61,683 nucleotides of DNA from Candidatus Azambacteria bacterium (GTDB lineage: Bacteria > Patescibacteriota > Minisyncoccia > GWC2-36-17 > WO2-46-25), in assembly GCA_016200965.1 (NCBI GenBank), contig JACQDT010000026.1:1-61683 (forward strand), given 5' to 3'. Of this stretch, positions 32,799-61,129 are shown piece by piece (within the stretch, counting starts at the first letter, position 1; each line of letters starts with the position of its first letter). Made by a program: the position numbers and the translations under genes. A model generated the notes under the pieces. The model worked only from the letters and a program-made list of their open reading frames with translations. It had not been told where the DNA came from and made no database searches.

Positions 32799-32799
32799 T

Positions 32800-33364: not shown

Positions 33365-33369
33365 TGATT

Positions 33370-34251: not shown

Positions 34252-34258
34252 ATCCAAA

Positions 34259-35648: not shown

Positions 35649-36258
35649 GGGAGTATTTTTTAATCATCGTATAAAACTTTTCCTGTTCTATCCTATCCAT
35701 TTCGTCAATGTCGATCCGCAATTCTTCGACCAACGCCTTGATGTTCTCCGATTTAGTGCCGCGGAACTGATGCGTTCTGAAATACAGCAAATCGAACAAT
35801 GCTTTCGAAGGCGAGGCAATATAAAAATCGAACTTGCCTTTTGTAAGAGAAAAATCCAAGAACAAATCCTTTTTGATCGACTGGTATGAGAAATTACCGG
35901 CCTTGGTCTCGAAATCTCGCGTGGCTTTGGGAGAGACCGAAGTAACGGAATGGACCGCTTCCGTAGCGAGATTGTAATACTGGAGAGCCGCCCATGAGCT
36001 CACGTAGGAAGGCGTGCGTATGACATTGGCAAGATAGAACGAATATGAAATGTCGTTCTTATTTTTTTCAAAGAAGTCGGTGGACACATATAAACCCTTA
36101 TTGAGCCAGATGATTTCTTTATACTTCAAAAACCGGCTGATGTAAGTGTCAACCGTACCGTCCTTAAGCCCCAGCTGTTTGCCAAGCTGATAAACAGTAT
36201 TTTTACCAAAATGGGACAAGGATTTAAGCTGTTCTAATAGGTTCTTTCTGCTTTTCAT
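35641..36258 (-). CDS. AbiEi-like antitoxin/transcriptional regulator
   Basis: 205 aa. N-terminal wHTH-like SHFGKNTVYQLGKQLGLKDGTVDTYISRFLKYKEIIWLNKGLY. The position upstream of AbiEii fits. The 10-bp palindrome ACACTAGTGT (36266-36275) lies just upstream. Confidence 0.7.
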   Translation of the reverse strand: MKSRKNLLEQLKSLSHFGKNTVYQLGKQLGLKDGTVDTYISRFLKYKEIIWLNKGLYVSTDFFEKNKNDISYSFYLANVIRTPSYVSSWAALQYYNLATEAVHSVTSVSPKATRDFETKAGNFSYQSIKKDLFLDFSLTKGKFDFYIASPSKALFDLLYFRTHQFRGTKSENIKALVEELRIDIDEMDRIEQEKFYTMIKKYSHE

Positions 36259-36358
36259 GATTATGACACTAGTGTACCATACACGAAATGCGTTGTAAAC
36301 CAGAACCTATTCACCTATTACTAAGCAGCAAAATGTCCCCCTTTGTCCAGTTATATCA

Positions 36359-37003
36359 CTAGTTCTTCTCCCCCACCCGCTCCAAAATCCTTACCACCCC
36401 CTTATCCGCATTCACTTCAACAAGATCGCCGTCTTTCAAAACCTTAGTAGCGATCTTTGTCCCAATAATACAGGGAATTTTCAGTTCTCTTGAAACAATA
36501 GCGGCATGGCATGTTATACCTCCTTCATCCGTTACAATCGCAGAAGCTCTTTTCATAAGCGGAACAAACTCTGGGCGGGTCATGCCAGTTACTAATACAT
36601 CCCCGTCATTAAAATGACCTACTTTGTTTGCATCAGGAACAATACGGACAATTCCAGTCGTTTTTCCACGAGAACCGACCGATCCTTTTATCTCTGCCAT
36701 ACCAAGTCCGGATTCCTGCTCCAAATGTTTTTGCTTGAGATATTCTAATATCTCAGCAACATCACGCGTCTCCGAATACACTTGTCCGTCTTCATCCAAA
36801 TAAGCAACAAAGCCATTTGGCCGATTTTCAATCTCACTCTTTTTTGAAATAAGCGTCTTTATTCCTTCCTTAAAATCGCCATCCACCATGTAGGTCGCGA
36901 GAGAAGCATCAATCCCTACACGACGAAACAACTCTTGTCCCGCAATAGCCCAGGCTGTCTGCAACTGAGCAAAAGGATCTTTACGCCAATCTCGAATCTC
37001 CAT
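36359..37003 (-). CDS. PEP-utilizing enzyme mobile (swivel phospho-His) domain protein; C-terminal piece of a frameshifted paralog
   Basis: GDVLVTGMTRPEFVPLMKRASAIVTDEGGITCHAAIVSRELKIPCIIGT. The frame stays open 29 codons upstream of the ATG (to the stop at 37091-37093) and reads protein-like (AKKEYAEYKKWLLSITDEERKIAEFTQKA). Confidence 0.7.
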   Translation of the reverse strand: MEIRDWRKDPFAQLQTAWAIAGQELFRRVGIDASLATYMVDGDFKEGIKTLISKKSEIENRPNGFVAYLDEDGQVYSETRDVAEILEYLKQKHLEQESGLGMAEIKGSVGSRGKTTGIVRIVPDANKVGHFNDGDVLVTGMTRPEFVPLMKRASAIVTDEGGITCHAAIVSRELKIPCIIGTKIATKVLKDGDLVEVNADKGVVRILERVGEKN

Positions 37004-37809
37004 AGCTTTTTGCGTGAATTCCGCGATTTTTCTTTCCTCATCTGTGATGGATAATAACCATTTTTTGTATTCCGCGTATTCTTTCTTTGCTTATTCTCTT
37101 GTTTATTCAAATCTGCCTTTTTTTCTACTAAATTCTTTTCAATATCCAACAAAGCTTCTTGTATCTCTGCCAAGGGCTTCGGAGAAAAATAGTCTGTTCC
37201 TGTGTACCAAAATAGTTTCTCTTTATTTTTAATATTTTTCTCAATAAGCGAGATTGCATGGCGAAGGCGCCTTGTTTCAAAGGACTCAAAATAGGGATGG
37301 GTTGCTTTTTCCCATATACTGTCGATTGCCTTCTTTTTTTGATTTCCTATGACTGAAAGAGTAATTTTTTCATCAAATGTTTCAACATATATGGTATGGA
37401 CAAGAAGAGCTCCAAAAAAATTTCTTCCCTCGGTGATTATGTTTTTAATATCCGTCTCTAACATATTCTCAGGATCAAATCGGATAATCTCATCATACCA
37501 CTGCTGAATTTCTTTTCTCAACACCTGCGCCTTTTTCTCAAATTGATCTTCTTTTTCGCCGCCATTCCAATAATCTTGAAAGATTTCTCGCGCGTATCCT
37601 TCATAGCGTGTCTCGCTAAAGAGTATATGGGAATTTCTACCCACAATAACCAAGAGGCCGACAAGCGGAAGCGTGCTATATGCTAAAGAATGAATCTTCT
37701 TCGCATTCCAGTTAAACATAAAATTCGCCGGCGAATACGGACCTTCCCAGAAATAAATCCTTTCGCCGTTTGAGGACTCGAAAAATTTTTTAACTAATGA
37801 TGATTGCAT
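36916..37809 (-). CDS. Middle (substrate-domain-like) piece of the same PEP-utilizing paralog; lacks the ATP-grasp domain
   Basis: 297 aa. Alignable by eye to the region after the ATP-grasp domain of 41579-43084 (FWEGPYSPANF.../FRSRYIPAMLP...; EKLFWYTGTDYF/EEYFWFPYEYV). The last ~30 codons (KNTRNTKNGYYPSQMRKEKSRNSRKK) look out of frame. Confidence 0.6.
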   Translation of the reverse strand: MQSSLVKKFFESSNGERIYFWEGPYSPANFMFNWNAKKIHSLAYSTLPLVGLLVIVGRNSHILFSETRYEGYAREIFQDYWNGGEKEDQFEKKAQVLRKEIQQWYDEIIRFDPENMLETDIKNIITEGRNFFGALLVHTIYVETFDEKITLSVIGNQKKKAIDSIWEKATHPYFESFETRRLRHAISLIEKNIKNKEKLFWYTGTDYFSPKPLAEIQEALLDIEKNLVEKKADLNKQENKQRKNTRNTKNGYYPSQMRKEKSRNSRKKLWRFEIGVKILLLSCRQPGLLRDKSCFVV

Positions 37810-37818
37810 GGAATTCCG

Positions 37819-38679
37819 TCAGGACTTTTGGCGTTTTTTGTTAATAAAAGCTACCAACCATTTAATGTGGAAATCAAAATCTTTCTCATTTCTGCTGTTA
37901 TCCTCAAAGAAATGCGAAAGGCCAAAAAGTGTGCCCGTGATCACTTTCCCTCCGCAAAGCAATAATGTTCTGAATATGTAATTACCAACCATTCCGTTTA
38001 CGGGGATAAGAATGTTATATCCAGCTTTTACCGCAAGATCTAAGTCTATCGCCCAATTTTTTGCGTCTATATTCTCTTTTTTCAGTTCATTGATTATCCA
38101 CTCGGCATCTTCGTATGTTCCATTCAACAAACCAACCACTCCATCCCTATTCTCCTTTTTCCTTTGGTATGTCTCATGACGAACTCCGGTGAAAATAGCT
38201 ACTTTGTAAACAATTTTCCACTCCTTCGCAAAATTCACTAATCCTCTTGCAATACGCAATCGATACTCTTTGTCCCAACCTTGAGGATTGCTCACGGGAC
38301 TCAAGAAAAATCGATTCCCGGAAACATCCTCCATAATAAATGGTGAGTCCTCACTATAACTTTCTCCCGTCAATTTTCCATACGCTTCGATGGTTTTAAA
38401 ATCATCAATTGTCCCCCTAACAATGCCGTCCACTTCGCCATCAACCAGCATTTTGGTGATTTTTTCTTCTGGTTTCTCATTGATAACAATCTGGAATCCT
38501 TCTATATTTTTTATTCTGTCCGTCCCCACCAGTATGATGTCCGCATACTCGCTACTCCTCCGCAGGCTTTCTAAAATCTCCGGATCTTCTGCGCTTAAAC
38601 CAAAAGCGATTTTTGGTTTCCCAATCGTGAGTAACTCACTAACACGCTTATTGAATTGTTCAAATGCATTATTTGTCAT
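37819..38679 (-). CDS. Phosphate acetyl/butyryltransferase (PTA_PTB)-like protein
   Basis: 286 aa. VDGEVDGIVRGT and PVNGMVGNYIFRTLLLCGG resemble the PTA/PTB family G-x-aDG-x-v-G and GN-x-x-yK motifs. This is a weak call. Confidence 0.4.
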   Translation of the reverse strand: MTNNAFEQFNKRVSELLTIGKPKIAFGLSAEDPEILESLRRSSEYADIILVGTDRIKNIEGFQIVINEKPEEKITKMLVDGEVDGIVRGTIDDFKTIEAYGKLTGESYSEDSPFIMEDVSGNRFFLSPVSNPQGWDKEYRLRIARGLVNFAKEWKIVYKVAIFTGVRHETYQRKKENRDGVVGLLNGTYEDAEWIINELKKENIDAKNWAIDLDLAVKAGYNILIPVNGMVGNYIFRTLLLCGGKVITGTLFGLSHFFEDNSRNEKDFDFHIKWLVAFINKKRQKS

Positions 38680-38687
38680 AAAACTTA

Positions 38688-40610
38688 CTACCCATTATTT
38701 TTCAAAAGATGGTCTATATTCTTACATGTTTTTTCAATGAGTTTCTGAATTATCAGAATATTTTCTTCGTTATATGCTCCGGTATTATAATTATTATCCA
38801 CCTCATCCATATAAGCCGCCTCGTTACATTCTAACTGAAAAGTATTTACGCCTTTTTGACGCTCACCATAAAATTCTACATTATGCGCTCCCTTAAAAGG
38901 ATGATTAACGCCAACAAGTCCACCCTTAATGTGCTTGGTCAATCGCTTTTTAATGCTGTCGTCCAACGCATTAAAATTCTTTTCCAAAGCATGAGTAAAG
39001 GCATCTCTGATATCTTGATCACAGGATGTCCCATCCGCGTCCCCGATAATAAACATCGGTAATTCTTCGGGGTTTTCTACGCCATAGAGTTTGAAATAGT
39101 CGTGAACCACAGAGCTTATCGGGAAAGAATGCCCATCAATGACAAGAATTCGTTCGTTATCACCTCTTCTGTCGGCTAAACTGCCGATAACTCCCATCAT
39201 CTTATTGTAATAAGATACATAGAAATCCTCTGCCAGATTCCGCACTTCTTCCCCTGTTGGTTCCTGTCCCGCTTTGTACATGGTCCCACCGCGTATCCCC
39301 TTGTACCACAAAACCTTTCCGGGTACTTTTGAGTTTTGCTCAAGGAGTGGAGCTCTGTTTGGGTCAACGATAAAGCGGGATAATTTCGTCCCCACACTCG
39401 GAATATCCTTGGAACGAAAAATTTCGCTTGTCCCTCTATCAACAAAAATAAAAGTATCTTTACCCTCTTCTGTTGCGCGCTCCCAAAGATCGCTCGGAAT
39501 ATATTCCCCAGCGTGAGGCCTGCCAAAACAAACAGATACGCATTCGCGCTCTCTTAACGCTCTATCGTCTACATCAACGGCATTCTCTGGCGTTATTTCA
39601 TCGCTCTCTATACTCTGACGCGTCGGCAATCCTCTCGCTTCCAGAGCATTAAGCACTTTCACAGGGCGCTCCCTTTTCTCCATATCCATAACAAAAGGGA
39701 ATTGCGAAATTTTTTCAATCTTTTCGTCAGTAATTATTATATCTTTTATCACTTCGTGGGGGATTTCCTCATTGAATTCAAATACCAACCTTTTTCCATC
39801 ACCATCTTCAACTTCCTTCTTGTAGCGTATGCGGATGGCAAACTCATCCGAATTTTTATTTAAAATATCAACTTCAAACCCTTCCGTATAATCAAACCCT
39901 TGATTACTGAGAGCTTGGACAAACTTATCTCGTTCTTCTGCGCCTTTGGTCTTTTCTATCACCTTGGCAAGAAATGATTCGTTCACGCCTTGGTGCGTCC
40001 CGAAAAATCGCTCCAATGTATCTGAGTATTCTTTTTGCTCGTCTTGCACTAATTTATCCCACCTTTTTGCAATCCCTATGTACTTGTCTATAATACTTGC
40101 GATATTTGAAGCTCCTCTTGAATAGGTAAAACTTGTTTCGTCTCCCGATTCCTTTGCTAATCTGTCGCTTTGTTCAACTAAAAACTTCAGGTAGTCGCCT
40201 CGCTTAAAATGATCGAGTGCGCTTACTCCGAATTCAGAACTAAAATCTATACCGAAGTCCAATCTTCTATCTACCCCTATTTTGGATCCTTTAGCCAGTC
40301 CTTTGTCTACTTTTTCTCTCAACTCTTCCAACGACTCATCTCCCGTTATCCCTTCTTGATTTCCAGACATCACGAACCCGGCGGTTTCCTGCGCTCGTGT
40401 TCTCGGGCTTCCGAAAGCGACTGACTGTTTCATATTTTTTGTATCACTTTTTTCTTTGGCTTGTTTTTTCCCAACAGGAGTTAATTCAATATCAAGATCC
40501 GATTTTGACTTGTTGTTTTCTTTTTCTCCGTGCCGAAAAAACGAGAGTTCAATCTTAGATGTGTACTCTTCGTGACTTTCAGATTTTTGAATATCCTCGA
40601 GTCTTTCCAT
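38688..40610 (-). CDS. Fusion protein: histidine-phosphatase-like N-terminal domain plus N-formylglutamate amidohydrolase (FGase)-like C-terminal domain
   Basis: N-half: FFRHGEKE, GSPRTRAQETAG, GTHQG. C-half: FGRPHAGEYIP, SRFIVDPNR, LVIDGHSFP, GVNHPFKG, resembling FGase family motifs. ATG at 40610 (MERLEDIQ). Confidence 0.55.
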   Translation of the reverse strand: MERLEDIQKSESHEEYTSKIELSFFRHGEKENNKSKSDLDIELTPVGKKQAKEKSDTKNMKQSVAFGSPRTRAQETAGFVMSGNQEGITGDESLEELREKVDKGLAKGSKIGVDRRLDFGIDFSSEFGVSALDHFKRGDYLKFLVEQSDRLAKESGDETSFTYSRGASNIASIIDKYIGIAKRWDKLVQDEQKEYSDTLERFFGTHQGVNESFLAKVIEKTKGAEERDKFVQALSNQGFDYTEGFEVDILNKNSDEFAIRIRYKKEVEDGDGKRLVFEFNEEIPHEVIKDIIITDEKIEKISQFPFVMDMEKRERPVKVLNALEARGLPTRQSIESDEITPENAVDVDDRALRERECVSVCFGRPHAGEYIPSDLWERATEEGKDTFIFVDRGTSEIFRSKDIPSVGTKLSRFIVDPNRAPLLEQNSKVPGKVLWYKGIRGGTMYKAGQEPTGEEVRNLAEDFYVSYYNKMMGVIGSLADRRGDNERILVIDGHSFPISSVVHDYFKLYGVENPEELPMFIIGDADGTSCDQDIRDAFTHALEKNFNALDDSIKKRLTKHIKGGLVGVNHPFKGAHNVEFYGERQKGVNTFQLECNEAAYMDEVDNNYNTGAYNEENILIIQKLIEKTCKNIDHLLKNNG

Positions 40611-40702
40611 AGACAAAGATTGTTTTAGACATAAATAATATTGGCGGGCATTGAACAAAATCCATTGTCAGTAAAGCACTTAATCGCCTTGAAGTAAATG
40701 CC

Positions 40703-41467
40703 TTAAAGGATAATCTTCACCACCCCCTTATCCGCATTCACTTCAACAAGATCGCCGTCTTTCAAAACGCGAGTTGCTGACTTTGTGCCAATTACGCAAG
40801 GAATTTTGAGCTCTCTAGAAATAATCGCCGCATGAGAAGTAATTCCTCTTTCATCTGTAATAATTGCTGATGCTTTTTTAATAATCGGTACAAAGTCAGG
40901 TGTTGTCATTCCTGTAACTAAAATGTCTCCTTCAGGAAAATTTTGTCCCTCGCTAGACGAATGTAAAATTTTAACACGGCCAGTCACTTTTCCCTTGTAT
41001 GCCGATTGGCCGTGCAGTGCCTCGCCTGTCGTGTAGACTTCCTCCTGAATACCTAGCTCTTTTAGCTTTTCTTTGGCGGCTTGATCACTGTAAACTTCGT
41101 ATTTTTCTGCGTCTTGAATAACGACACAAAAAACTGAACGATTTTTTAATTCCTCTCTCACTGCTGTTTTGTCAAAACTCTCATTTGCAAGTAGATCGAG
41201 GAGATTGGACTCAAGATAACGCATATCTTCCAGCGCGATATCAAGCCTTTTCGCTAAAGCCCCCAGAATAACATTATTTAGGTAATAGCAAATTTGAGCA
41301 TTAAGCATTTTACGATCATCTTGCATTAAAGCCACGGCGCGTAAAACAGCAAAGAATTTTTCTGCCTTCTCCGTAATTTTAATATCTACCTCGTGTTGCA
41401 ATTCGGTTGCGTGTTCAACTGCATCAAATGATAGGGCGTCAATAACACGTTTTCTCACTGTGGGCAC
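40703..41467 (-). CDS. C-terminal part (swivel phospho-His domain) of a PpsA/rifampin-phosphotransferase-like dikinase, downstream of an in-frame TGA
   Basis: GDILVTGMTTPDFVPIIKKASAIITDERGITSHAAIISRELKIPCVIGT. The same frame is open for 37 further codons up to the TGA at 41579-41581 that ends the upstream ORF. Confidence 0.75.
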   Translation of the reverse strand: MPTVRKRVIDALSFDAVEHATELQHEVDIKITEKAEKFFAVLRAVALMQDDRKMLNAQICYYLNNVILGALAKRLDIALEDMRYLESNLLDLLANESFDKTAVREELKNRSVFCVVIQDAEKYEVYSDQAAKEKLKELGIQEEVYTTGEALHGQSAYKGKVTGRVKILHSSSEGQNFPEGDILVTGMTTPDFVPIIKKASAIITDERGITSHAAIISRELKIPCVIGTKSATRVLKDGDLVEVNADKGVVKIIL

Positions 41468-41578
41468 ATCCCATACTCTTGGACCAACATATTCGTAGGG
41501 AAACCAAAAGTATTCTTCAGAGAATTTTTTTATTGCCTTTCCAACAATCGAACTATCTATACCCTGATTTCTTGCTAA

Positions 41579-43084
41579 TCACACAATCTTCCAAAATTTT
41601 TCTTCCTCCTCTTGGCTGTATAACTTCTCGTTAGGAATAGACATCGCAGAAAAAATTTTATTCTGTTCCTCGTCGCTTATTTCTGGCAGTTCCTTCTTAA
41701 TTTCTGCTTGAATAGCTTCTCCTGAAAACAACCAAAGAAGCATACTTTGCCTTGTAAATTCGTTGTAAGTTTTATCCAAAAAACCTAAAAAGGTTGCAAA
41801 ATCGGCTATGGTAACTGAATCAACTTTGATCGCAAATTCTTTGCAGGCATCAACAACCTTCTGTCCAGCTTTTATTCCTTGTTTTCGAATATCTCGCAAA
41901 CTTCTAACATGGGAGAGTAAGAAATTGAGCGAGTAATCTCTTACCGCCTGGTATCCTTTTTCTTCCCAAATTGCTTGATAGTATCCCTTATCCCAAACAT
42001 TAACAACCAAGCCAACCTCTTTACCCACAACATCTTTCACGGGCCATGACCAGTAGGAAAGGATCGGCAACATTGCAGGTATGTAACGACTTCGAAAAAC
42101 TTGCCATTTCCTATGGACATTAAAATCATCCTGCGCCGAAGTCGAGAGCGTTGTTATCGGCCTGCTTTGCAGGATATAAAATTTTCCTTTTTCAAATGCC
42201 CACTCGATATCGCAGGAAAAACCGTAGTGATTTTCGATAATGAGAACAATTTGTGATAATTCTAAAATTTGAGTTTCGTTTAATACCTGGGAAGATGCTT
42301 TTGGTTCGAGGATAGTGATCCATTCGTTCCCTCCCTTCACGGAACGATGGAGTGCCTTGGCTTGAGTATTAACATTTATATCAATAATCCTTCTCGGCTC
42401 TTTTTCTACAACATAGCTATCAGGCGTAATCTGCCCTGACACAATCGCTTCGCCAAGACCAAATCCCGCCTCAATGATGAGTTGGTTTCTGTCTTGCGTG
42501 ACGGGATGAACGGAGAAGGCGATGCCCGATACATCGCTTTCAACCATTTTCTGCACTACCACCGCTACGGATATTTTCTGCCTGTGCAGATCTTTTTCAA
42601 ATCGATAGAAAATGGCGCGTGGCGTGAAGAGGGACGCCCAGCACTTTTTTACGTTTTCTAACAGATTTTCTTCTTCTGTATTCAAGAAGCTGTCAAGCTG
42701 TCCCGCCCATGCCGCGCTTGCGGAGTCCTCGGCGGTCGCTGATGATCTCACGGCGACATAGTCGGCGCCGAGTTTTTTGAACGATATTTTTATTTCTTCT
42801 GCAATGTCATGGGGCATTTTTGCTTCAAGTATGAGTTTCTGTATTTTTTCAGAAGCATGCTCTACGGTATGCATTTCTCTGTGGTTGACGGAATGAAGCG
42901 CCGCATCAATTTCAACGTTCAAATCGGTCTCTTTCAGAAATTGTTCAAAGGCGTTTGCAAGAATAACAAAACCAGAAGGCACAGGAATTCCCGCCTGCGT
43001 CATCTCGCCGAGCGATGCGCCTTTGCCTCCGGCAAGAGCGGCATCATTTTTCCCTAGTTTTCCGAAGTCACGTATGAACTCCAT
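41579..43084 (-). CDS. N-terminal part (PPDK_N ATP-grasp plus middle domain) of the same dikinase-like gene
   Basis: 501 aa. MEFIRDFGKLGKNDAALAGGKGASLGEM...VAVRSSATAEDS...AFSVHPVTQD is typical of the PEP synthase/PPDK N-terminal nucleotide-binding domain. Confidence 0.8.
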   Translation of the reverse strand: MEFIRDFGKLGKNDAALAGGKGASLGEMTQAGIPVPSGFVILANAFEQFLKETDLNVEIDAALHSVNHREMHTVEHASEKIQKLILEAKMPHDIAEEIKISFKKLGADYVAVRSSATAEDSASAAWAGQLDSFLNTEEENLLENVKKCWASLFTPRAIFYRFEKDLHRQKISVAVVVQKMVESDVSGIAFSVHPVTQDRNQLIIEAGFGLGEAIVSGQITPDSYVVEKEPRRIIDINVNTQAKALHRSVKGGNEWITILEPKASSQVLNETQILELSQIVLIIENHYGFSCDIEWAFEKGKFYILQSRPITTLSTSAQDDFNVHRKWQVFRSRYIPAMLPILSYWSWPVKDVVGKEVGLVVNVWDKGYYQAIWEEKGYQAVRDYSLNFLLSHVRSLRDIRKQGIKAGQKVVDACKEFAIKVDSVTIADFATFLGFLDKTYNEFTRQSMLLWLFSGEAIQAEIKKELPEISDEEQNKIFSAMSIPNEKLYSQEEEEKFWKIV

Positions 43085-43182
43085 TATTGGCTTGTTTCTT
43101 CAGTATGGTATCATACCATTTTTCATACATAAAGCCGCGGTGAATGCGTTGCCGTCATACGACGACTGCTCCGCTATGCGGG

Positions 43183-43211
43183 TTGCGCAACGCGATAATT
43201 TTTGATATACT
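43183..43211 (+). promoter_or_regulatory. Sigma70-like promoter with extended -10, 8 nt upstream of the ATG at 43220
   Basis: TTGCGC (43183-43188), a 17-nt spacer ending in TGA, then TATACT (43206-43211). No SD before the ATG. Confidence 0.45.
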
Positions 43212-43219
43212 ATAGCGGT

Positions 43220-43507
43220 ATGCGCCCAATAAAAAGCTCAAATATAAAAAAGAAAAGTCGGGCGGTTTCTCGCGGGATAACATTCAGACAAGCCCTCTTT
43301 TGGGATACCAATCCAAAAAATATAGACGCCAAAAAACACGCTCGCTATATCATTGAGCGGATTTTAGAGTTTGGACATGATGATGAGGTGCGTTGGATAT
43401 TCAAACAGTATCCGGAGCATATTATAAAAAAAGTCATAAATCTTCCTCGCGTTCAATTAAGTCCTAGATCAAAAACCCTATGGACACTTCTTCTCAAAAC
43501 CAAATAA
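43220..43507 (+). CDS. Small protein upstream of an AbiEii-like NTase (putative antitoxin partner)
   Basis: 95 aa from ATG 43220 (MRPIKSS...). It overlaps the downstream NTase gene by 28 nt. I recognise no motif. Confidence 0.5.
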   Translation: MRPIKSSNIKKKSRAVSRGITFRQALFWDTNPKNIDAKKHARYIIERILEFGHDDEVRWIFKQYPEHIIKKVINLPRVQLSPRSKTLWTLLLKTK

Positions 43508-44160
43508 ACTGGCATTATGAAACATTGCCGCGTCGGACGAAAAAGGCATTTGATTTTTTATCGCAACAAGAGTGGCTAAAGGAATCAAAGTGGTATCTCG
43601 CCGGCGGAACGGCTTTGGCCCTTCAGGCGGGCAATCGCAAGTCCCTCGATTTGGATTTCTTCACGGAAGAAAAAAATTTTGATGAAAAAGAGTTAGCTGC
43701 TCATTTTATTGATAATAAAGATTGGATTACTGAGGTGGAAAGAAAAAATACTATCTACGGAAAGCTCTTGGGAGCTAAAGTAAGTTTTATCGCATATCCA
43801 TTTTTTATGCCAAAACAAAAACCGCTTTGGCATGGGTCGATCCGCGTGCTGAATCAAATTGATATTGCCGTAATGAAAATAACCGCTATTTCGCAACGGG
43901 GTCGAAAAAGAGATTTTTTTGATCTCTATTGGTGCGCGAAAAACATAGAGCCGCTGGAACATATTATCAAACGGCTCAAAGTCCAATATCCGTCCGTAGC
44001 CCATGACTATCATCATATTTTAAAAAGCATGGTGTACTTTGAAGACGCCGAAAGCGATCCGCCGCCAGAAATATTTTTCAAAGCAAGCTGGAACGACGTC
44101 AAAAATTATTTTAAAAAAGAAATCGTGGATATTACCAACGCCATGCTTATAAAAAAATAA
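43480..44160 (+). CDS. Nucleotidyltransferase, AbiEii/DUF1814-like (short form)
   Basis: 226 aa. WYLAGGTALALQAGNRKSLDLDFF and ...RGRKRDFFDLYW are the NTase motifs shared with AbiEii toxins. Confidence 0.7.
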   Translation: MDTSSQNQINWHYETLPRRTKKAFDFLSQQEWLKESKWYLAGGTALALQAGNRKSLDLDFFTEEKNFDEKELAAHFIDNKDWITEVERKNTIYGKLLGAKVSFIAYPFFMPKQKPLWHGSIRVLNQIDIAVMKITAISQRGRKRDFFDLYWCAKNIEPLEHIIKRLKVQYPSVAHDYHHILKSMVYFEDAESDPPPEIFFKASWNDVKNYFKKEIVDITNAMLIKK

Positions 44161-51549: not shown

Positions 51550-52200
51550 CTAGATATCAACTTGGATATTTTTTTGCAATTTATGCATCTCATTTTTAAT
51601 CTCGTCAATAACCTCGGAGTTGTGAATTCTTTTTTTATCGCCCTCTTTGATTGAAATAACATAGAAAACTTTACCGCCGTATTTTTCTGTGAATTTTTTG
51701 TGTGTTTTTTCTTGCAATTGTCTTTCTTTAAATATTTGCGAAATATGGGAAACGCCGCTTGCGGGTTTAATCTGGAGACCGATACACTTCCCATTTAATT
51801 TTATAAAGAAATCAACATTATACCCTCTATCCCATTCATCGGGGGCTGGTTCGATTTTTACGCCCAACATTTCCTGCAATTGTCCGTAAATAGTCGCTTT
51901 TTCCGTCATATACCCATCAAACGTTCTCTTGATAACCAAGTCAAAGATATAAGCGATACAATCTCCTTCTGTGATAGTTTCAACTTCCGAGGCAATAACC
52001 TCCGTTATTTTTACATAGAGCTTTTTGCCTAAATCAACAATGTGTTCTTTGGGTTTAACATTTTTGAAATAATAACCTTCCCAATCTTTAATTGTTTTGG
52101 GCGAGCATTTTCTTATTTCTTCGGAAACAGCCCCAACATTTCTTTTGAAATTCAATTGAAACCTGTTTGTCGCCGAATTTAAAATCCATTCTTTCGCCAT
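51550..52200 (-). CDS. Putative type II restriction endonuclease (PD-(D/E)xK-like)
   Basis: 216 aa and AT-rich. It lies immediately downstream of, and co-oriented with, a DNA methyltransferase. A candidate catalytic stretch is YNVDFFIKLNGKCIGLQIKP. Confidence 0.5.
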   Translation of the reverse strand: MAKEWILNSATNRFQLNFKRNVGAVSEEIRKCSPKTIKDWEGYYFKNVKPKEHIVDLGKKLYVKITEVIASEVETITEGDCIAYIFDLVIKRTFDGYMTEKATIYGQLQEMLGVKIEPAPDEWDRGYNVDFFIKLNGKCIGLQIKPASGVSHISQIFKERQLQEKTHKKFTEKYGGKVFYVISIKEGDKKRIHNSEVIDEIKNEMHKLQKNIQVDI

Positions 52201-52201
52201 A

Positions 52202-53488
52202 TTATTGTTGTAGTAGATTTAAAAATTTTAATTTATATTTATAATCAAATTTATCATCAACATTCACGAAGCCGGTTTTTATCAAATGTGCATTGACAAA
52301 AGTTTTATTTTGCAAATATAAATAGCAGAGCAAATTATTTTCGCTATCGTATTTTGAGTTATCAAACCTCATAAAAACTCTTTGATTTTTCAATTTTGCT
52401 TGTAAAAATTCCGTTGCCTTATGAAGCGTTTCCCTTTTCGCCTTCACACCGATTAATCTAATCGCCAAATCATTATTTAATAAAATCTTTTCCGGGTTAA
52501 TAATTTGTTTCACAGAATATAAATCAACCTTTTCGTTATCTACGGAATCGATTTTTGAGCCAAATTTCAATTTTTTAGGGTCAATCTTTCTGCTAAATTT
52601 TATTGCATCCTTAAAAATATATGGTAGCTTTGAAATTTCTTTTTTAAAATCTGTGGTTTTATTTTTCTGTTCTATAACCTCAAAGTGTACGCTCTTAAAT
52701 AAATCTGCCTTATCTGTTCCGATTTTTTCTTTTATTATCTGTAGGAATTCCTTATTTATTTCAAAACCAACGGAGTTGCGCTCTAAATTTTTTGCCACAA
52801 GGGTGGTTGTGCCGCTTCCCAAAAACGGGTCCAAAACCGTATCACCCGCAAAGCTAAACATTTTAATGAGCCGTTTGGGCAATTCTTCGGGAAACATTGC
52901 CAAATGCTTGTCTTGTTTTGCGCCATTAAAATTCCAATGTCCGGTAAAATACTGGTTCCATTCTTCTTTGGACATCTTGGATTTTTCTTTTACTTCTTTT
53001 GATGCCGTAGGCGCTTCTCCTGTTTTTTTAAAAATTAAAATAAACTCGTAATCTAGTTTAATAATTCCATTTCTCGGATAGGGAAAACTGCCCATTATGG
53101 TTGCTCCGCCGGTAGTATTCATCGTGGTAGCTTTCTGCCAAATGACGGCCCCCATATAATCAAATCCTATGGTTTCACAAAATTTTATTATTTCCGTTCT
53201 GATTGGGATAACTTTGTATCTTCCATAATAAACCGATCTCGCAAATTGATCGCCGATATTTATACAAAGACGGCACCCGTCATGTAAAACCCTCTCACAT
53301 TCTTTCCAGACCAAATTAAGATTATTGATATACTCTTCATAGCTATCATTAAAACCAATCTGATTCAGAGAACCATAATCTTTTAACTGCCAATAGGGCG
53401 GTGAAGTAATCACAAGATGAACGGATTTGTTTTGCAATTCCGCCATATCGCGGGAATCACCAATTATAATTTTGTGATTGGTTTTCAT
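52202..53488 (-). CDS. DNA methyltransferase (beta class, SPPY motif IV; N4-cytosine or N6-adenine) with an SNase-like C-terminal extension
   Basis: Motif IV VITSPPYW precedes motif I VLDPFLGSGTT. The C-terminal IRLIGVKAKRETLHKATEFLQAKLKNQRVFMRFD...LLCYLYLQNKTFVNAHLIKTGF resembles a thermonuclease fold with altered catalytic positions. Confidence 0.8.
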   Translation of the reverse strand: MKTNHKIIIGDSRDMAELQNKSVHLVITSPPYWQLKDYGSLNQIGFNDSYEEYINNLNLVWKECERVLHDGCRLCINIGDQFARSVYYGRYKVIPIRTEIIKFCETIGFDYMGAVIWQKATTMNTTGGATIMGSFPYPRNGIIKLDYEFILIFKKTGEAPTASKEVKEKSKMSKEEWNQYFTGHWNFNGAKQDKHLAMFPEELPKRLIKMFSFAGDTVLDPFLGSGTTTLVAKNLERNSVGFEINKEFLQIIKEKIGTDKADLFKSVHFEVIEQKNKTTDFKKEISKLPYIFKDAIKFSRKIDPKKLKFGSKIDSVDNEKVDLYSVKQIINPEKILLNNDLAIRLIGVKAKRETLHKATEFLQAKLKNQRVFMRFDNSKYDSENNLLCYLYLQNKTFVNAHLIKTGFVNVDDKFDYKYKLKFLNLLQQ

Positions 53489-56081: not shown

Positions 56082-56113
56082 GCCCCCGTAACATCGGGGG
56101 CGTTTTTTGTTTT
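56082..56113 (+). terminator. Intrinsic terminator after the cohesin-like gene
   Basis: gcccccg (56082-56088), loop taacat, cgggggc (56095-56101), then gttttttgtttt. Confidence 0.8.
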
Positions 56114-56221
56114 AAGCACACACATTACCATGGCCTATTGACATCATGAAACAGGACGTTACGGTGTAGGCATGGATTGCACATTCCAAAGTTATAAACC
56201 TATGACAAAAGGAGGAACCCT

Positions 56222-57385
56222 GTGGGGAAAAGTCTGAAGGTAATTGCTAGAATCACGGATAAATGTAACCAGGATTGCACCTATTGCTATGTTGACCGGG
56301 AAACCCGACGCACATCAAGAACCAAGTTGAGTTTAGAGTCGCTCTCGCGATTCTATAAGGAAACACTTTCCGGGCAACACTTTGACCACGTCCACATTGT
56401 CTGGCATGGCGGCGAACCGACGCTTGTTGGGCACGAGTATCTGGATCGGGTCATTTCACTTCAGGAACAATACCGGGGAAACGGCGTGACCGTTGAGAAT
56501 TCGATCCAAACCAATGCCACCGCCCTCGACAAACAAATGCTTGAGGTGTTTAAAAAACATCAGGTGGGAGTTGGTGTATCGTTAGATGCTCCCCCTGACG
56601 TACACGCCAGCATGAGAGTTTCGTGGGCTGGTCGCTCCGCGTTCGAGCAAACACTTTCCAAAATCGAGTTGATGCGCGCGCACAACATACGGTTTGGCGC
56701 CATCTGTGTCCTGCATCGACTCAACTACACGCGCTGCGATGAGATTTACGACTTTTTCAAGTCTGTTAATCTCAGCTACCAATTCAACCCGTTCTACAAG
56801 GACGAGGCCACGCAAGACCGTCCTGTGGAGGAGCTTTCCATAACCCCTGAACAGTACGCAGAGGCGCTTATCCAAACCTTCGACCGGTACATTGGTGACC
56901 CAGAGCATACCATTGATGTAACCGACCTGAAAGAAATCGTTCTCAGCATGTTCATGGGATGCAGCCGGAGCTGTCTCTTCGCCGGAAAATGTGAAGAGTT
57001 TATCGGGATTCTTCCGACCGGCGAAATTTACCTGTGCGACCTGTTTTACCGCGAGAACTTTCGCATTGGGCACATTGATTCAATCACTGCCGAGTCAATA
57101 CTCAATGCGGCCCCGGTCAACCTGATACGGTCAAGGCCCGAGCTCCTTCAGCAAACTTACTGCAGGGGGTGTGAGTGGTGGGACATTTGTCGCGGGGGAT
57201 GCAGCTCAAAATCGGCAGCCGTATACGGCAACGCTATGCGCGAAGATCCTTTTTGTCTCACACGTAAAGAGTTGTTCGCGCACATCAAGGATACTCTGTT
57301 AACATTCAAAAACCGAGAGGAGGTGATGGCCCTTGCAACGAACCAAGGAAGCTCATTCAGAATCAGTCCCTGTGGATCAGTTTAA
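56222..57385 (+). CDS. Radical SAM/SPASM domain peptide- or protein-modifying enzyme
   Basis: GTG start 5 nt after GGAGGA. CNQDCTYC (CX3CX2C) at residues 15-22, then WHGGEPTL and QTNATAL. The C-terminal Cys cluster is CSRSC...GKC...LCD...CRGCEWWDICRGGC...DPFC (SPASM-type). Confidence 0.9.
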   Translation: MGKSLKVIARITDKCNQDCTYCYVDRETRRTSRTKLSLESLSRFYKETLSGQHFDHVHIVWHGGEPTLVGHEYLDRVISLQEQYRGNGVTVENSIQTNATALDKQMLEVFKKHQVGVGVSLDAPPDVHASMRVSWAGRSAFEQTLSKIELMRAHNIRFGAICVLHRLNYTRCDEIYDFFKSVNLSYQFNPFYKDEATQDRPVEELSITPEQYAEALIQTFDRYIGDPEHTIDVTDLKEIVLSMFMGCSRSCLFAGKCEEFIGILPTGEIYLCDLFYRENFRIGHIDSITAESILNAAPVNLIRSRPELLQQTYCRGCEWWDICRGGCSSKSAAVYGNAMREDPFCLTRKELFAHIKDTLLTFKNREEVMALATNQGSSFRISPCGSV

Positions 57386-57518
57386 CCCGGCTGATTTTAG
57401 GTCTTGCGATTCCCCTGCTTTGGCTACTATCGCAAAGCAGGCAACCGAAGCGAAAACCGGGGCGGTCGCATGGTCTACAAAAGACTGGAACGCCAACTGG
57501 CAAAACCGGCGAAGTTAA
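57333..57518 (+). CDS. Candidate RiPP precursor peptide (61 codons, TTG start)
   Basis: GGAGG (57319-57323) lies 9 nt before the TTG. It overlaps the maturase 3' end in another frame. The stop is 8 nt before a strong terminator. C-terminus AVAWSTKDWNANWQNRRS. Confidence 0.4.
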   Translation: MQRTKEAHSESVPVDQFNPADFRSCDSPALATIAKQATEAKTGAVAWSTKDWNANWQNRRS

Positions 57519-57526
57519 TCGCCTGA

Positions 57527-57560
57527 CGGGGCTGGAGAAATCCAGCCCCGTTCTTTTTTT
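57527..57560 (+). terminator. Intrinsic terminator of the rSAM operon
   Basis: cggggctgga (57527-57536), loop gaaa, tccagccccg (57541-57550), then ttcttttttt. Confidence 0.85.
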
Positions 57561-57585
57561 CCAACCTACTGATATACTACGTTGT

Positions 57586-58311
57586 ATGAAGCTTCACTTT
57601 TCTGTAGCCAGCAAAAAAGCAACTGCATTTTACTTGTTAGGGCTCGCCTTAAACCACGGGTCTTTTCCGTCTACCACCGCAAAAGAGCGCAAAATGTTTT
57701 CCAAAACCAGTAAAAATAAACGGCTTCCACCTTACATCGTGCCTTCCAGTTATCAGTTGTATGGATCACTGAAAGCATCTATTCTGAGTGGTAAGTCCAC
57801 GCTCCTTGATAGCATTTTTAAAAAAACCTTCAAACAGTTAAACGGTGTTGAAATTCGCGGCGTTACGCGGCACAAAGCAAATGTGCTACAAAAGAGCCTT
57901 CGCATTCTCTACGATACATACAGAGAAAAAATCTCTTTGTTTTTCAAGTGCCAAAAGGTACGGCAAGATATCGAATTTCATGTGTATGTGTTACCCGATT
58001 TTGGTGAAAGAGCAGAATCTCTCCCCAATGCCATCGTCATTGGGGACGCCTTTCACAAAAAAATTGCCTTTGCGGTGGTTATGGAGGAATTTCTTCACGC
58101 GTTATACGGGCGCGGTTTTATAAAAATGGCGGTCTCGCCAAAAACGAAGGATAAAAATCTCTGGGAAGAAGCGGTTGTGGGAACAATTCTCTTCCAACTT
58201 CTTGCGTCTATTGGATATGACAAAAACGTGTCGAAATCAATTGTTTTCGGCTGGCAGAGTGGGAAAAGAGAAAAGTTGGTTGAAAAACTCTTAAAAATCC
58301 TCAGCGAATAA
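57586..58311 (+). CDS. Hypothetical protein (241 aa)
   Basis: The ORF starts 26 nt after the terminator. I recognise no motif with confidence (VVMEEFLHALYG is not a canonical HExxH). Confidence 0.5.
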   Translation: MKLHFSVASKKATAFYLLGLALNHGSFPSTTAKERKMFSKTSKNKRLPPYIVPSSYQLYGSLKASILSGKSTLLDSIFKKTFKQLNGVEIRGVTRHKANVLQKSLRILYDTYREKISLFFKCQKVRQDIEFHVYVLPDFGERAESLPNAIVIGDAFHKKIAFAVVMEEFLHALYGRGFIKMAVSPKTKDKNLWEEAVVGTILFQLLASIGYDKNVSKSIVFGWQSGKREKLVEKLLKILSE

Positions 58312-58325
58312 ATACTATTATCCCT

Positions 58326-59978
58326 TCACATCCCTTCCACGAACTGCTGGACGGCTTCGGCGCTGGGGTTGTGAAGCGGAAGCGACACGTAAAACTGCGA
58401 ACCCTTGCCCTCGCCTTGCGATTCTACCCACACCTCGCCGCCGTGGGCTTTCACTATTTCTCTGACAATGTAGAGTCCCAAACCGGAACCGTCGGCGCGG
58501 AACTTCGTCACCCCCCGCGCGCGGCTGAATTTCTGAAACAGTTTTTGTATCGTATCTTCCGACAATCCGATGCCGGAGTCCCTCACCGCAACCACCACGT
58601 TGTCCTTTTTGCGCTCAAGCGAGATTTTTATGAAACCCTCGGGCGTATATTTGAGCGCGTTGTCAATAAGATTGATGAACACCTGCCGGATTTTTCCGTA
58701 ATCGGCTTTTATCTTCGTTTCTGCGTCGTCAACCGACACCTTAAATTCAATCGCCACATTTTTCCTGTCCGCGGTGAATTTCAGCTCGTCGGCCGCGTCT
58801 TTCAGCGCGTTGAATACCTTCACTTCTTCAAACATAAGCTGCATGCGCCCCTGCTCAATGCGCGAGACGTCCAGCAGATCGTTCACGATGAAAATGAGTC
58901 GCTGGGCCGACTGGAAAATCTTATCCACCACTCCGCGCACCGTTACCGGCGTCTCGCCGTACGTTCCTTCCAAGATCATGGACGAATACCCCTTAATCGC
59001 CGTCAGCGGCGTGCGCAACTGATGCGACGCGATGGAAATGAAATCCGTTTTCAAGTCGTCCAGCTCCTTGAGCCGCGCGTTCGCGATTTGCAGGTCCTTC
59101 GTGAGAAGCTCCAGCTGTTCCCTCTGCTTCACCTCTTTGCGCACGCTCCGGATAAGCAGAATCCCGAGCACGATCAAAAACGCCAGCAACCCGCCGTCAA
59201 TAATCCGCTCCTGCAATGACTGAGCCAACAGCGTTCGTGCAAGCAAGAAAATCCATATCGCAAACGTTAAAAACTCGGTTGCGACAACTCTTACGTCAAA
59301 AAGCTGGTACCGGACAATGGCAATGGCAAGAACGGGGACCAAGATAAATGTTGAGTAGGGACCGAGCCAGAAATAATTAAAGTTACCGAATGTGGGAAGA
59401 ATGAGGTTCGTAGTAGTATTGAAGATCGCAGTAACCGCGGAGGCGAGAAGGATATAACGAAGGCGCACCTCTTCAATCCCGGCTGATACGCGATATTTTT
59501 TAAGCAACATCAGAAATGCCGTGATAAGGGTTAAGATAAAATGAGCCCAGTAAAGAAAGTAGAGCGGACCAAACTCAAAACTGCGGCTTCCGATCGCTGG
59601 ATCAAAAAGCACGTCTTTTATAAGCGTGTTAGTGAAAAAAAGGAGGTAGAAAAAAAGGAGGTTGGGCGAGAGAATAAGCGCAAGAAGCGAAAAACGGATT
59701 GTTGCGCGTTCATTGGGAAACACGATTGCGAACATGAAGAATGAGGTGACAATAAAGCTCCCCGTGAAATAAACGAAGTTGCTCCAGAAACGCATTTGGG
59801 AAAGATCGTATATAAAAAACATGAATATCCCCAAACTCCATAAACCGATATTGAGTACTGCCAAACCATAAAACAAGTTGATTAAACTTTTTCTATTGCG
59901 TGAATAGATAAAAATACCGAAAAGAAGCGAGAGAAAAGAGAGGAGCGGGAGAAAAATCAAACGGAGATCAAGGATCAT
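58326..59978 (-). CDS. Sensor histidine kinase with a multi-pass (about 7 TM) N-terminal domain
   Basis: 550 aa. H-box ISIASHQLRTPL, DSGIGL, GSGLGLYIV. The tail ends AEAVQQFVEGM. Confidence 0.85.
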   Translation of the reverse strand: MILDLRLIFLPLLSFLSLLFGIFIYSRNRKSLINLFYGLAVLNIGLWSLGIFMFFIYDLSQMRFWSNFVYFTGSFIVTSFFMFAIVFPNERATIRFSLLALILSPNLLFFYLLFFTNTLIKDVLFDPAIGSRSFEFGPLYFLYWAHFILTLITAFLMLLKKYRVSAGIEEVRLRYILLASAVTAIFNTTTNLILPTFGNFNYFWLGPYSTFILVPVLAIAIVRYQLFDVRVVATEFLTFAIWIFLLARTLLAQSLQERIIDGGLLAFLIVLGILLIRSVRKEVKQREQLELLTKDLQIANARLKELDDLKTDFISIASHQLRTPLTAIKGYSSMILEGTYGETPVTVRGVVDKIFQSAQRLIFIVNDLLDVSRIEQGRMQLMFEEVKVFNALKDAADELKFTADRKNVAIEFKVSVDDAETKIKADYGKIRQVFINLIDNALKYTPEGFIKISLERKKDNVVVAVRDSGIGLSEDTIQKLFQKFSRARGVTKFRADGSGLGLYIVREIVKAHGGEVWVESQGEGKGSQFYVSLPLHNPSAEAVQQFVEGM

Positions 59979-61129
59979 AATTCGTAATAAGAAGGGTGAA
60001 ATCCGATGGTGCGCGAATGCGCCTTGATGAGATCCGCGTATGTATCGTCACCGTATGTTATTTTTTCCATCGGAATTTCCGCCGCCGCTATCGTTATGGT
60101 TTCCGCAAGGCACGCAAACACGTTCCCTTGCTTCAGGGGAAACTTAAAATGGTAATCAATTGCTGGCGGCGAAACCACCATTCCGCCTTCATAAAACCGG
60201 CAATCGCGGCGGGCAGAAATGACACTCTTGGTAATGTTTTTGGGTTGCGATATGTCGTATACAATTGCTCCCTTTTTCAGGTGTTCCGTCTGAATGAGCG
60301 CAGCGGGAGAATTTGTGGCAAGTACGACAAAATCCGCGGAAACGAGGGATGCGGGATCGGTTGAAATATCGATTGCGCGGCCTGGAAATTGTTTTGCGAG
60401 GGTGGATTTGAGTGCTTCGAGATTTATGAGCGTACGCGACACGAGAAGCAACTCTTGCGCGCCTGCGCGAAGAAGAATCCTGCTCAGGATGCCTCCCACC
60501 GAACCAGTGGCGCCGAGTATCGCGATGCGCATACGCCCGAGTTCTTTTCCTGCGCCACTTACGATGCGCGAAATGTTTTCAGCGCTTGCGATGGCGGTAA
60601 ACGTATTGCCATTCGTTACGGCGGCGTCGGTGATTTCCTCAACATCACCGCCGTTATCGGTAAGCGAAGATGTGTAGGCGCCCAGACCGATTACGACAGC
60701 CCCGAGTTTTTCTGCAAAACGCGCCGCCCGAAAAATTTTTTTCTTTGCGCGTGATTTTTGTTCAATCATCTGCGCCGCGGTCATCGGAATCGCGATAATG
60801 GCGCCACGGATTTGTTTTCCGTCGCGAATCGTCCGGACGCCGGTAATCATGGAGAGGCGGATCGGCCACGCGAATCCGAGAAACATCCGTGTTATTTTTT
60901 CCGGAAATGGCCGCAAAAAAGGAAACGTTGCGATTGCGTCGGATGTATAGCGCGCATGCAAAAGAAAAGCAAAATCAATCTCCGGCTTCTTGCGCGCGGA
61001 AAAATACTGAACGAACAAATCATTGAATATTCTGGTGATTGCTTTCATTAAAAATGCGGCTTCGTCGCTGACTCTCCCAGCATACCAAAAACAGGCGCGG
61101 GGTACAATGAAAAGGTGTTTTATCCTCAT
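59975..61129 (-). CDS. NAD(P)-binding oxidoreductase, acyl-ACP reductase (AAR)-like/shikimate-DH-like fold
   Basis: VTNGNTFTA, ILGATGSVGG and FACLAETI parallel the TTGNTHTA, VVGATGDIGS and FACFAEAM blocks of cyanobacterial acyl-ACP reductases as I recall them. The start may be the ATG at 61048. Confidence 0.5.
   Translation of the reverse strand: MRIKHLFIVPRACFWYAGRVSDEAAFLMKAITRIFNDLFVQYFSARKKPEIDFAFLLHARYTSDAIATFPFLRPFPEKITRMFLGFAWPIRLSMITGVRTIRDGKQIRGAIIAIPMTAAQMIEQKSRAKKKIFRAARFAEKLGAVVIGLGAYTSSLTDNGGDVEEITDAAVTNGNTFTAIASAENISRIVSGAGKELGRMRIAILGATGSVGGILSRILLRAGAQELLLVSRTLINLEALKSTLAKQFPGRAIDISTDPASLVSADFVVLATNSPAALIQTEHLKKGAIVYDISQPKNITKSVISARRDCRFYEGGMVVSPPAIDYHFKFPLKQGNVFACLAETITIAAAEIPMEKITYGDDTYADLIKAHSRTIGFHPSYYEL

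Follow-up and report, generated by a model that had tools for sequence, protein, structure and literature searches.

A candidate RiPP cassette with dynobactin-like tryptophan motif spacing in a Candidatus Azambacteria bacterium

Dynobactin A of Photorhabdus australis has the sequence WNSNVHSYRF, and in its first ring a radical S-adenosylmethionine (SAM) enzyme has joined C6 of Trp(i) to the β-carbon of Asn(i+3) (PMC11002830). In darobactin (WNWSKSF), the product of DarE, the rings are fused, span i/i+2 and include one ether link and one bond from Trp to the β-carbon of Lys. The triceptide systems (XncB/XyeB, OscB/GrrM, MscB/FxsB, YhhB, HaaB, HtkB and ChlB) also form aromatic-to-β-carbon crosslinks at i/i+2, in repeated short motifs with Asn, Asp, Lys or Arg as acceptors. 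WprB, WgkB and StrB crosslink repeated Trp motifs to Arg or Lys side chains; the WprA peptide has three WPR motifs, in which WprB joins Trp C5 to the γ-carbon of Arg at i/i+2. Here we describe a cassette of three genes on a contig of 61,683 nucleotides (JACQDT010000026.1, assembly GCA_016200965.1; the whole contig is hereafter the window) from a groundwater Candidatus Azambacteria bacterium of the candidate phyla radiation (CPR). The cassette encodes a radical SAM enzyme with a SPASM domain, a small Trp-rich peptide and a protein of metal-binding type.

The cassette is very probably a genuine precursor-maturase unit for a peptide that is ribosomally synthesised and modified post-translationally (RiPP). 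Judged by motif spacing, its working is most like the formation of dynobactin ring 1, and from sequence and analogy we infer a new RiPP family, for which a variation on dynobactin-type cyclophane chemistry is the most fitting reading. A previous sequence-only reading of this DNA had suggested a SPASM maturase beside a short precursor in a little-explored lineage. The RiPP claim is supported by the conservation of the small open reading frame (ORF) and by the lack of a nearby sulfatase, and the lineage is indeed a CPR lineage. That reading counted two genes; the unit has three, with a conserved gene of about 240 codons past the hairpin that follows the precursor. CPR bacteria (Patescibacteria) are uncultivated and host-dependent and have tiny genomes, and to our knowledge few natural products have been assigned to them.

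Precursor family and its motif spacing

The peptide gene was compared across the eleven related loci for which DNA was available (L001, L003, L004, L031, L111 to L114, L119, L120 and L118, the last found via the third gene), twelve with the window. Its length is unremarkable on its own, as 74 ORFs of at least 40 residues occur in 9.7 kb; its conservation across loci raises it above chance. A protein-database search with the 61-residue peptide returned nothing, and no candidate shared 5-residue words with it, so the conservation was demonstrated from the DNA of the loci. In all 11 related loci a small ORF directly follows or overlaps the enzyme gene, and its product ends in W[SA]xK[DN]W[ND]xNWxx[RN][RK][ST] or in the two-motif form WGPNxSWSGRRT. 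The C-terminal cores are AWSTKDWNANWQNRRS in the window, AWSTRDWNANWQNRRS in L118, GWSNKDWNSNWDGRRT in L003, PWSSKDWNSNWQNRRT in L001, SWNTKDWNADWNNRRH in L119, GWSGKDWNGNWGGRRSVSPF in L004, GWSNKDWNGKWGGRRTIDPF in L120, RWAGKDWNGNWSNRRT in L031, NWSAKNWDHNWNANKT in L111, SFAKDWNGNWKNRRT in L114, RWGPNQSWSGRRT in L112 and LWGPNDSWSGRRT in L113. The leaders share a segment of the form [ND]-P-x-x-[FL] ... [AVI]-[AV]-x-x-[IA]-A in the alignment of the 12 precursors.

The GC content of the precursor loci ranges from 39 to 63%. All six Arg codons are in use at two conserved Arg positions, and the Ser, Lys, Asn and Asp codons vary synonymously across loci. L118 is the closest relative of the window, at 82% nucleotide identity; of the 18 substitutions that separate the two where the ORF does not overlap the enzyme gene, 11 affect third codon positions (binomial P = 0.014). 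Gene callers predicted the precursor in L001, L003, L004, L112, L113, L119 and L120; on the window's own contigs it was not called. A AAGGAGGTGA-type Shine-Dalgarno (SD) sequence stands 6–9 nt ahead of the precursor start in nearly all related loci, and in the window AAGGAGGTG is read in the enzyme frame as the conserved K/R-E-V of the enzyme tail (alignment of 16 orthologues). A GC hairpin with a T-run, comparable to that of the window, follows the precursor stop in 10 of the 12 loci. These patterns lead us to conclude that the small ORF encodes a precursor peptide that is translated and under selection. The sequence-only reading had proposed this frame of 61 codons, with its own GGAGG 9 nt ahead of a TTG start, and had suggested a search for it in orthologous loci; the frame was confirmed, and the search recovered it in the same position with a conserved C-terminal core.

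Every core Trp has Lys, Arg, Asn or Asp at position +3 (33 of 33 over the 12 cores). Within the set the +3 residue changes from Lys to Arg (L118), Asn to Lys (L120), Asn to Asp (L119) and Arg to Asn (L111). No fixed residue occupies position +2, and many cores have Gly there; as Gly has no β-carbon, an obligatory i/i+2 link of the triceptide or darobactin type is excluded. The sequence-only reading had listed the three-residue pattern W/F/Y-x-N/K/R among the possible chemistries; the spacing found here is i/i+3, as in dynobactin ring 1. Eight of the 12 cores contain W-N-[ASG]-N, and in L001 and L003 it is exactly WNSN. Neither the H-x-Y motif of the second dynobactin ring nor the W-x-W-x-K motif of darobactin was observed in any of the 12 cores.

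Compared with the dynobactin system, the cassette shares an RRE-less enzyme of 360–390 residues (RRE, RiPP recognition element, the leader-binding domain) that aligns end-to-end with the DynA model, a C-terminal precursor core and a middle motif, W-N-[SAG]-N, that is the motif of dynobactin ring 1. The two systems differ in other respects. The score against DynA is low (see below), and the H-x-Y for a second, C–N ring is missing. Three tandem W-x-x-acceptor motifs (two in some precursors) replace the single one, with Lys, Arg and Asp as acceptors besides Asn. The precursor gene lies after the enzyme gene and overlaps it, the partner gene is a different one, and the host is a CPR bacterium rather than a gammaproteobacterium.

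Two further observations concern the peptides. At L004:5274-5285 and L120:4962-4973 the precursors carry a four-residue C-terminal extension (VSPF and IDPF, respectively) past the RR[ST] that ends all other cores, and the Phe at their very end recalls the one that closes darobactin and dynobactin. In an unrelated locus, L048:2075-4134 (metagenome Ga0066637_10006079), a 25%-identical radical SAM/SPASM enzyme is preceded by two small ORFs whose products start with MELCV and end in repeated W-x-x-D motifs, WQGDKWDNHSWSSDWSCDY and WTGDYWNNDWSCDYN. L048 is a candidate for a separate RiPP family with the same i/i+3 spacing and hints that such Trp motifs are a wider theme among enzymes of this kind.

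The radical SAM enzyme and its EExxH partner

The CX3CX2C motif of the enzyme (C15/C19/C22) is invariant in 16 aligned orthologues. The SPASM cysteines (C257-x9-G267-x4-C272, C314-x2-C317-x5-C323-x3-C327 and C345, plus C251) are invariant or near-invariant among them and conform to the seven-cysteine motif CX9-15GX4C/CX2CX5CX3C/C. Pfam assigns Radical_SAM (PF04055, 66.7 bits against a gathering score of 29.5) and SPASM (PF13186, 23.6 bits against 21.5). Sequence, alignment and Pfam bear out the earlier description of a 387-residue enzyme that starts with GTG after a GGAGG and carries both cysteine clusters; its caveat that no RRE-like extension is present also holds, as the enzyme has no RRE. 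The AlphaFold 2 (AF2) model has a mean predicted local distance difference test score (pLDDT) of 89.1. The tail (residues 367–387) is predicted to be disordered, with pLDDT below 50 at 367–371 and 376–387; this segment overlaps the precursor gene and is variable among orthologues past the conserved K/R-E-V. The orthologue clade is tight: about 16 proteins share 48–73% identity, after which identity falls abruptly to about 30%. The GTDB species-representative genomes scanned contained no close orthologue (top match, 30% identical), and a metagenome scan contributed a single locus, L031. At L118:2325-2768 (Logan SRR22388016) the enzyme gene is present only as fragments in two frames, with approximately residues 90–150 joined to the last 25 or so; upstream, on the opposite strand, is a gene for indoleamine 2,3-dioxygenase.

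By sequence, the enzyme belongs to the border zone between the anaerobic sulfatase-maturating enzymes (anSME) and DynA. Its top match among the NCBIfam profile hidden Markov models (HMMs) is the anSME model TIGR03942 (246.6 bits; curated cut-off 349.45), followed by DynA (NF041298, 234.5 bits; cut-off 450), DarW, a second anSME model, DarE (NF038005; cut-off 650), YhhB, AmcB, GrrM/OscB, FxsB and XyeB. The anSME models PRK13758 and PRK13745 gave 160.2 and 131.6 bits (cut-offs 441 and 484), and the remaining matches include other peptide-modifying radical SAM families. The DynA match extends over positions 6–353 of the 356 in the model. Six further orthologues score 212–248 bits with TIGR03942 and 205–234 bits with DynA, both below cut-off, and the nearest relatives beyond the clade, P0018 and P0020, score higher with DynA (304 and 299 bits) than with anSME (271 and 234 bits). 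Because every curated cut-off was failed, the enzyme is placed outside the DynA, DarE, anSME and triceptide equivalog families; its position in the border zone means that its role is decided by the genomic partners and not by HMM scores.

By sequence, the nearest of the solved structures is anSMEcpe (4k36, 136 bits), with the triceptide synthase ChlB next (72.8 bits). The predicted fold is equally near to both (TM-scores of 0.73–0.81), with the best Foldseek E-value for anSMEcpe. ChlB was crystallized in complex with the leader of its precursor, so the missing RRE is no obstacle for the enzyme described here. No sulfatase Pfam domain was found among the scanned large ORFs of the 61.7-kb window, no C/S-x-P/A-x-R sulfatase signature in its six-frame translation and no sulfatase gene in the listed neighbourhoods of the related loci. 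Grouping with anSME, which the sequence-only reading had named as a result that would count against it, is not decisive at the protein level: the TIGR03942 score is below cut-off, the DynA score is nearly equal and the ChlB fold is as close. The genomic side of that comparison gave no sulfatase gene or signature.

The other described systems resemble the cassette in part. The enzyme is like anSMEcpe (PDB 4K36-4K39) in size and in the pattern of its SPASM cysteines, and neither has an RRE, but the enzyme comes in close linkage with a conserved Trp-rich peptide and with a partner gene dedicated to the cassette. The triceptide systems make comparable crosslinks in comparable motifs, the fold of ChlB matches the enzyme model with TM-scores of 0.77–0.81, and these systems are accompanied by an HExxH-type metal protein. 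However, their links span i/i+2, whereas the conserved acceptor here is at +3, and the enzyme scores far below the cut-offs of XyeB (94 against 450 bits), YhhB (147 against 445), GrrM/OscB (121 against 310) and FxsB (111 against 370). Darobactin likewise has a Trp-rich C-terminal core matured by a SPASM enzyme and a bond from Trp to the β-carbon of Lys. In contrast to DarE, the enzyme lacks the N-terminal extension (the match begins at model position 73) and reaches 150.4 of the required 650 bits. WprB, WgkB and StrB, which need an RRE or a separate chaperone (WprC), were not among the top NCBIfam matches shown, and WprB is without the auxiliary Fe-S cluster Aux I.

The third gene encodes a partner protein with homologues of 27–39% identity in the same position in L001, L031, L112, L113 and L114, and a further one in L120; in L004 the gene start is visible before the contig end. 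It is thus present in every related locus that reaches far enough downstream, except L111, which has no partner. Clustering of 1.84 billion proteins at 50% leaves 25 representatives of the family, which is a rarity similar to that of the enzyme clade, and a word-indexed search gave 4 matches. The partner and 22 relatives showed no consistent family in Pfam, NCBIfam or PDB sequence profiles, and by sequence they are a tiny new protein family. An Ald_deCOase match over the EExxH helix (E = 0.01–0.04), seen in one member, was dismissed as motif-level noise. Across the 23 members K63, L105, E167, E168, H171, G199 and R228 are invariant, and E141, E195 and W223 are near-invariant.

The AF2 model of the partner, built from 4 sequences, has a pLDDT of 71.9 and a predicted TM-score (pTM) of 0.71. 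The core (residues 93–241) is well predicted and comprises three strands followed by the helix that bears EExxH. Nearly all of the top 50 Foldseek matches in the PDB are zincins or zincin-like: M1 aminopeptidases, M61, M4, the lanthipeptide peptidase EryP, minigluzincins and IrrE. For a weak Foldseek match, SjiH, the literature gave nothing relevant. The HExxH proteins beside cyclophane-forming radical SAM enzymes (ChlH, PflC and PosC) are α-ketoglutarate-dependent hydroxylases; the NCBIfam and Pfam models of that type (IPR026337, ChlH/PflC type) matched none of the 23 members, and the motif differs. On the model and by analogy, the partner is plausibly a leader peptidase with a variant metal site, or a metal-dependent tailoring enzyme or oxygenase. 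The earlier caveat that the operon holds no protease needs revision, as the conserved gene immediately downstream encodes a protein whose predicted fold is weakly zincin-like.

Proposed chemistry and its alternatives

Three genes stand in a conserved order, with a precursor translation and motif pattern and enzyme cofactor motifs that are directly observed. From these we infer which crosslinks form and where, what the third protein does and how the product acts biologically. The motif spacing and the dynobactin analogy moderately favour three tandem four-residue Trp cyclophanes with i/i+3 links, formed by dynobactin-type chemistry, and two such rings in the WGPN...WSGR cores. The enzyme, with one SAM-binding and two auxiliary [4Fe-4S] clusters, would recognize the leader of the 61-residue precursor and, by analogy with dynobactin ring 1, take a hydrogen atom off an sp3 carbon (most likely the β-carbon) in the side chain of the Lys, Asn or Arg at i+3. 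That carbon would then be coupled to the indole of Trp(i). The window core WSTK-D-WNAN-WQNR-RS would be converted into three consecutive four-residue rings with a loss of 2 Da each, or 6 Da in total. The EExxH...E protein of the third gene would then remove the leader or tailor the rings further, with read-through into its gene limited by the hairpin that follows the precursor. Where the bonds lie, in what order the rings form, where the leader is cut and how the product is exported are likewise provisional parts of this scheme; an ABC transporter is encoded near the cassette in L112 only.

Several observations weigh against this scheme. The crosslink chemistry is deduced from motif spacing and analogy, and the literature examined gives no example in which Lys or Arg serves as the i+3 acceptor, nor one of three i/i+3 rings in tandem; DynA itself makes a single Trp-Asn(i+3) ring, plus the His-Tyr C–N ring. 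L114 lacks the first Trp and has F-A-K in its place, with i/i+2 spacing, and the two-motif cores of L112 and L113 differ in the spacing between motifs. The enzyme scores 234.5 bits against a DynA cut-off of 450, and anSME is both its best single HMM match and its best sequence-to-PDB match. The partner motif is E167-E168-x-x-H171 in all 23 members and never the HExxH of zincin metallopeptidases, and the zincin likeness is weak (Foldseek E at least 0.14, TMq at most 0.35). In L118 the enzyme gene is fragmentary while the precursor AWSTRDWNANWQNRRS and a 238-residue partner gene are intact; this could reflect decay, an assembly artefact or an enzyme-independent role of the peptide.

A real RiPP pair with another chemistry is the main alternative, and we regard it as possible but rather unlikely. 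It covers a streptide-like Lys-to-Trp link (K-D-W), darobactin-type Trp-Trp ether or C–C bonds, a WprB-like bond from Trp C5 to a γ-carbon, i/i+2 triceptide rings at some of the motifs and hydroxylation by the third protein. Radical SAM cyclophane synthases are chemically diverse, and the F-A-K of L114 would suit such a reading, as would the conserved core residues outside the W/+3 pairs (S2, D5 and N7), which could be modification sites, and the hydroxylases (ChlH, PflC and PosC) that neighbour cyclophane-forming radical SAM enzymes. However, Trp with Lys, Arg, Asn or Asp at +3 is the sole feature common to all motifs of the 12 cores, position +2 is often Gly, K-[DN]-W is missing from the two-motif cores and the Trp-to-Trp spacing varies by core type (5 and 4 in one, 6 in the other). 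A Trp-Trp link was rejected on that difference in spacing, and formylglycine formation on a Ser or Cys of the peptide was rejected because the core has no C/S-x-P/A-x-R motif.

That the enzyme is an anSME or another anSME-like protein modifier, with the small ORF not its substrate, is very improbable. This alternative can draw on the TIGR03942 and anSMEcpe matches and on the alignment of C272-D273 with C276-D277 of anSMEcpe, where D277 is reportedly the catalytic base. It conflicts with the sub-threshold scores of the enzyme and of six further orthologues and with the lack of any sulfatase domain or signature in the window and listed neighbourhoods, and it leaves unexplained why the enzyme strictly co-occurs with a conserved Trp-rich peptide and with a partner family of its own. 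It is scarcely credible that the small ORF stays open by chance and that the conserved DNA is an RNA element, such as part of the terminator region. The TTG start, the missing call on the window's own contigs and the lack of a word-sharing homologue would fit a chance frame, but the ORF is called in seven other loci, its open frame, SD and C-terminal motif are kept from 39 to 63% GC and conserved residues are encoded by synonymous codons, including all six Arg codons.

If the i/i+3 links of the favoured scheme are right, the four-residue Trp ring of dynobactin is a repeatable module that accepts Lys, Asn, Asp and Arg, and cyclophane RiPPs, a class that includes BamA-directed antibiotics, gain an added scaffold. 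In addition, the cassette would assign a role to a very rare new EExxH protein family and would show that CPR enzymes annotated by best hit as 'anaerobic sulfatase maturase' can be peptide maturases. A more far-reaching version holds that an episymbiotic CPR bacterium (Candidatus Azambacteria and relatives) makes a rigid peptide with three consecutive four-residue Trp cyclophanes, and that the product, in the manner of dynobactin and darobactin, acts as a β-strand mimic on an outer-membrane target such as BamA. We consider this doubtful; if true, the scaffold would be new to the literature, its maturation would fall to a DynA/anSME-like radical SAM enzyme without an RRE together with a metalloenzyme of a new EExxH family, and its target would lie in the host or competitors of the symbiont. 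NCBIfam and Pfam have no entry for the precursor family or for the partner family, and a literature search found no paper on either of them and no relevant one on four-residue cyclophanes or on radical SAM RiPP precursors of Patescibacteria. The cassette is a testable genome-mining lead from an uncultivated lineage, within an established chemistry class, and is small enough to synthesise.

Features and gene context of the window

The cassette lies between two terminator-like sites, as the upstream hairpin closes the preceding gene (Table 1). The stem of the downstream hairpin (57525-57552) has 12 pairs, 8 of them G-C, begins 6 nt past the precursor stop and has a predicted RNAfold energy of −24.7 kcal/mol. 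A hairpin of 10 bp at 8 nt with a T-run had been noted previously; the hairpin and T-run are there, and the difference in measure is immaterial. The TTGACA of the previously noted promoter is also present, but its −10 candidate matches the consensus at 3 of 6 positions, and a sigma-70 promoter scan did not report the site.

Table 1. Positions of the cassette, its flanking signals and other features in the window (ORF, open reading frame; SD, Shine-Dalgarno sequence; tmRNA, transfer-messenger RNA).
Feature	Position	Strand	Remarks
tmRNA gene	31869-32253	+	Rfam RF00023, 126.8 bits
Gene upstream of the cassette, 233 aa	55362-56063	+	Marginal cohesin-domain match, 23.9 bits against a cut-off of 24.1
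Upstream terminator-like hairpin and T-run	56082-56101		Closes the preceding gene
Promoter-like site: TTGACA (56138-56143), 16-nt spacer, TACGGT	56138-56165	+	Read from sequence, weak
Radical SAM/SPASM enzyme, 387 aa, GTG start	56222-57385	+	GGAGG SD at 56211-56215, 6 nt before the start
SD (GGAGG) of the precursor gene	57319-57323	+	Inside the enzyme coding sequence; 9 nt to TTG
Precursor small ORF, 61 codons, TTG start	57333-57518	+	Shares 53 nt, in another frame, with the 3' end of the enzyme gene
Precursor leader, residues 1-46	57333-57470	+	Alignment of 12 precursors
Precursor core WSTKDWNANWQNRRS and stop codon	57471-57518	+	Three tandem W-x-x-(K/N/R) motifs
Hairpin and T-run, putative intrinsic terminator or attenuator	57525-57561	+	Between the precursor gene and the third gene
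Partner protein gene, 241 aa	57586-58311	+	Directly past the hairpin; conserved

A second contig, JACOSM010000044.1 (GCA_016178885.1), encodes an identical enzyme and is 99.86% identical to positions 56128-60385 of the window. Its metagenome-assembled genome is listed as Candidatus Azambacteria in a supplementary table (PMC7906910). The window contains genes for Mur ligases, FemAB, aminoacyl-tRNA synthetases and PolA, a tmRNA gene, and toxin-antitoxin and restriction-modification genes, which fits a small-genome bacterium. RF00023 is the sole Rfam family in the window at the gathering threshold.

The neighbourhood of the 233-residue gene with the cassette is not kept in other loci. A histidine kinase flanks the cassette in three loci (window 58326-59978 on the minus strand, L004:1-1222 and L120:627-2300), and in the window and L004 it has an N-terminal seven-transmembrane domain (HisKA_7TM). 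This may be a regulatory or sensing link, or a coincidence.

Farther away, positions 26552-30175 (minus strand) encode a 1207-residue isoleucyl-tRNA-synthetase-like protein with a histidine-phosphatase domain (His_Phos_1) inserted at residues 538–706. Two further His_Phos_1 proteins are encoded nearby, at 33370-34257 and 38688-40658, the latter fused to an FGase domain. The GC content is 0.38–0.44 at positions 30000-44000 and 51550-53488, compared with approximately 0.50 elsewhere. On these low-GC stretches, which are probably mobile or defence islands, lie two genes for AbiEii-type toxins, PEP-utilising/PPDK-like genes that are split, and genes for an MjaI-type restriction endonuclease together with an N4/N6 DNA methyltransferase.

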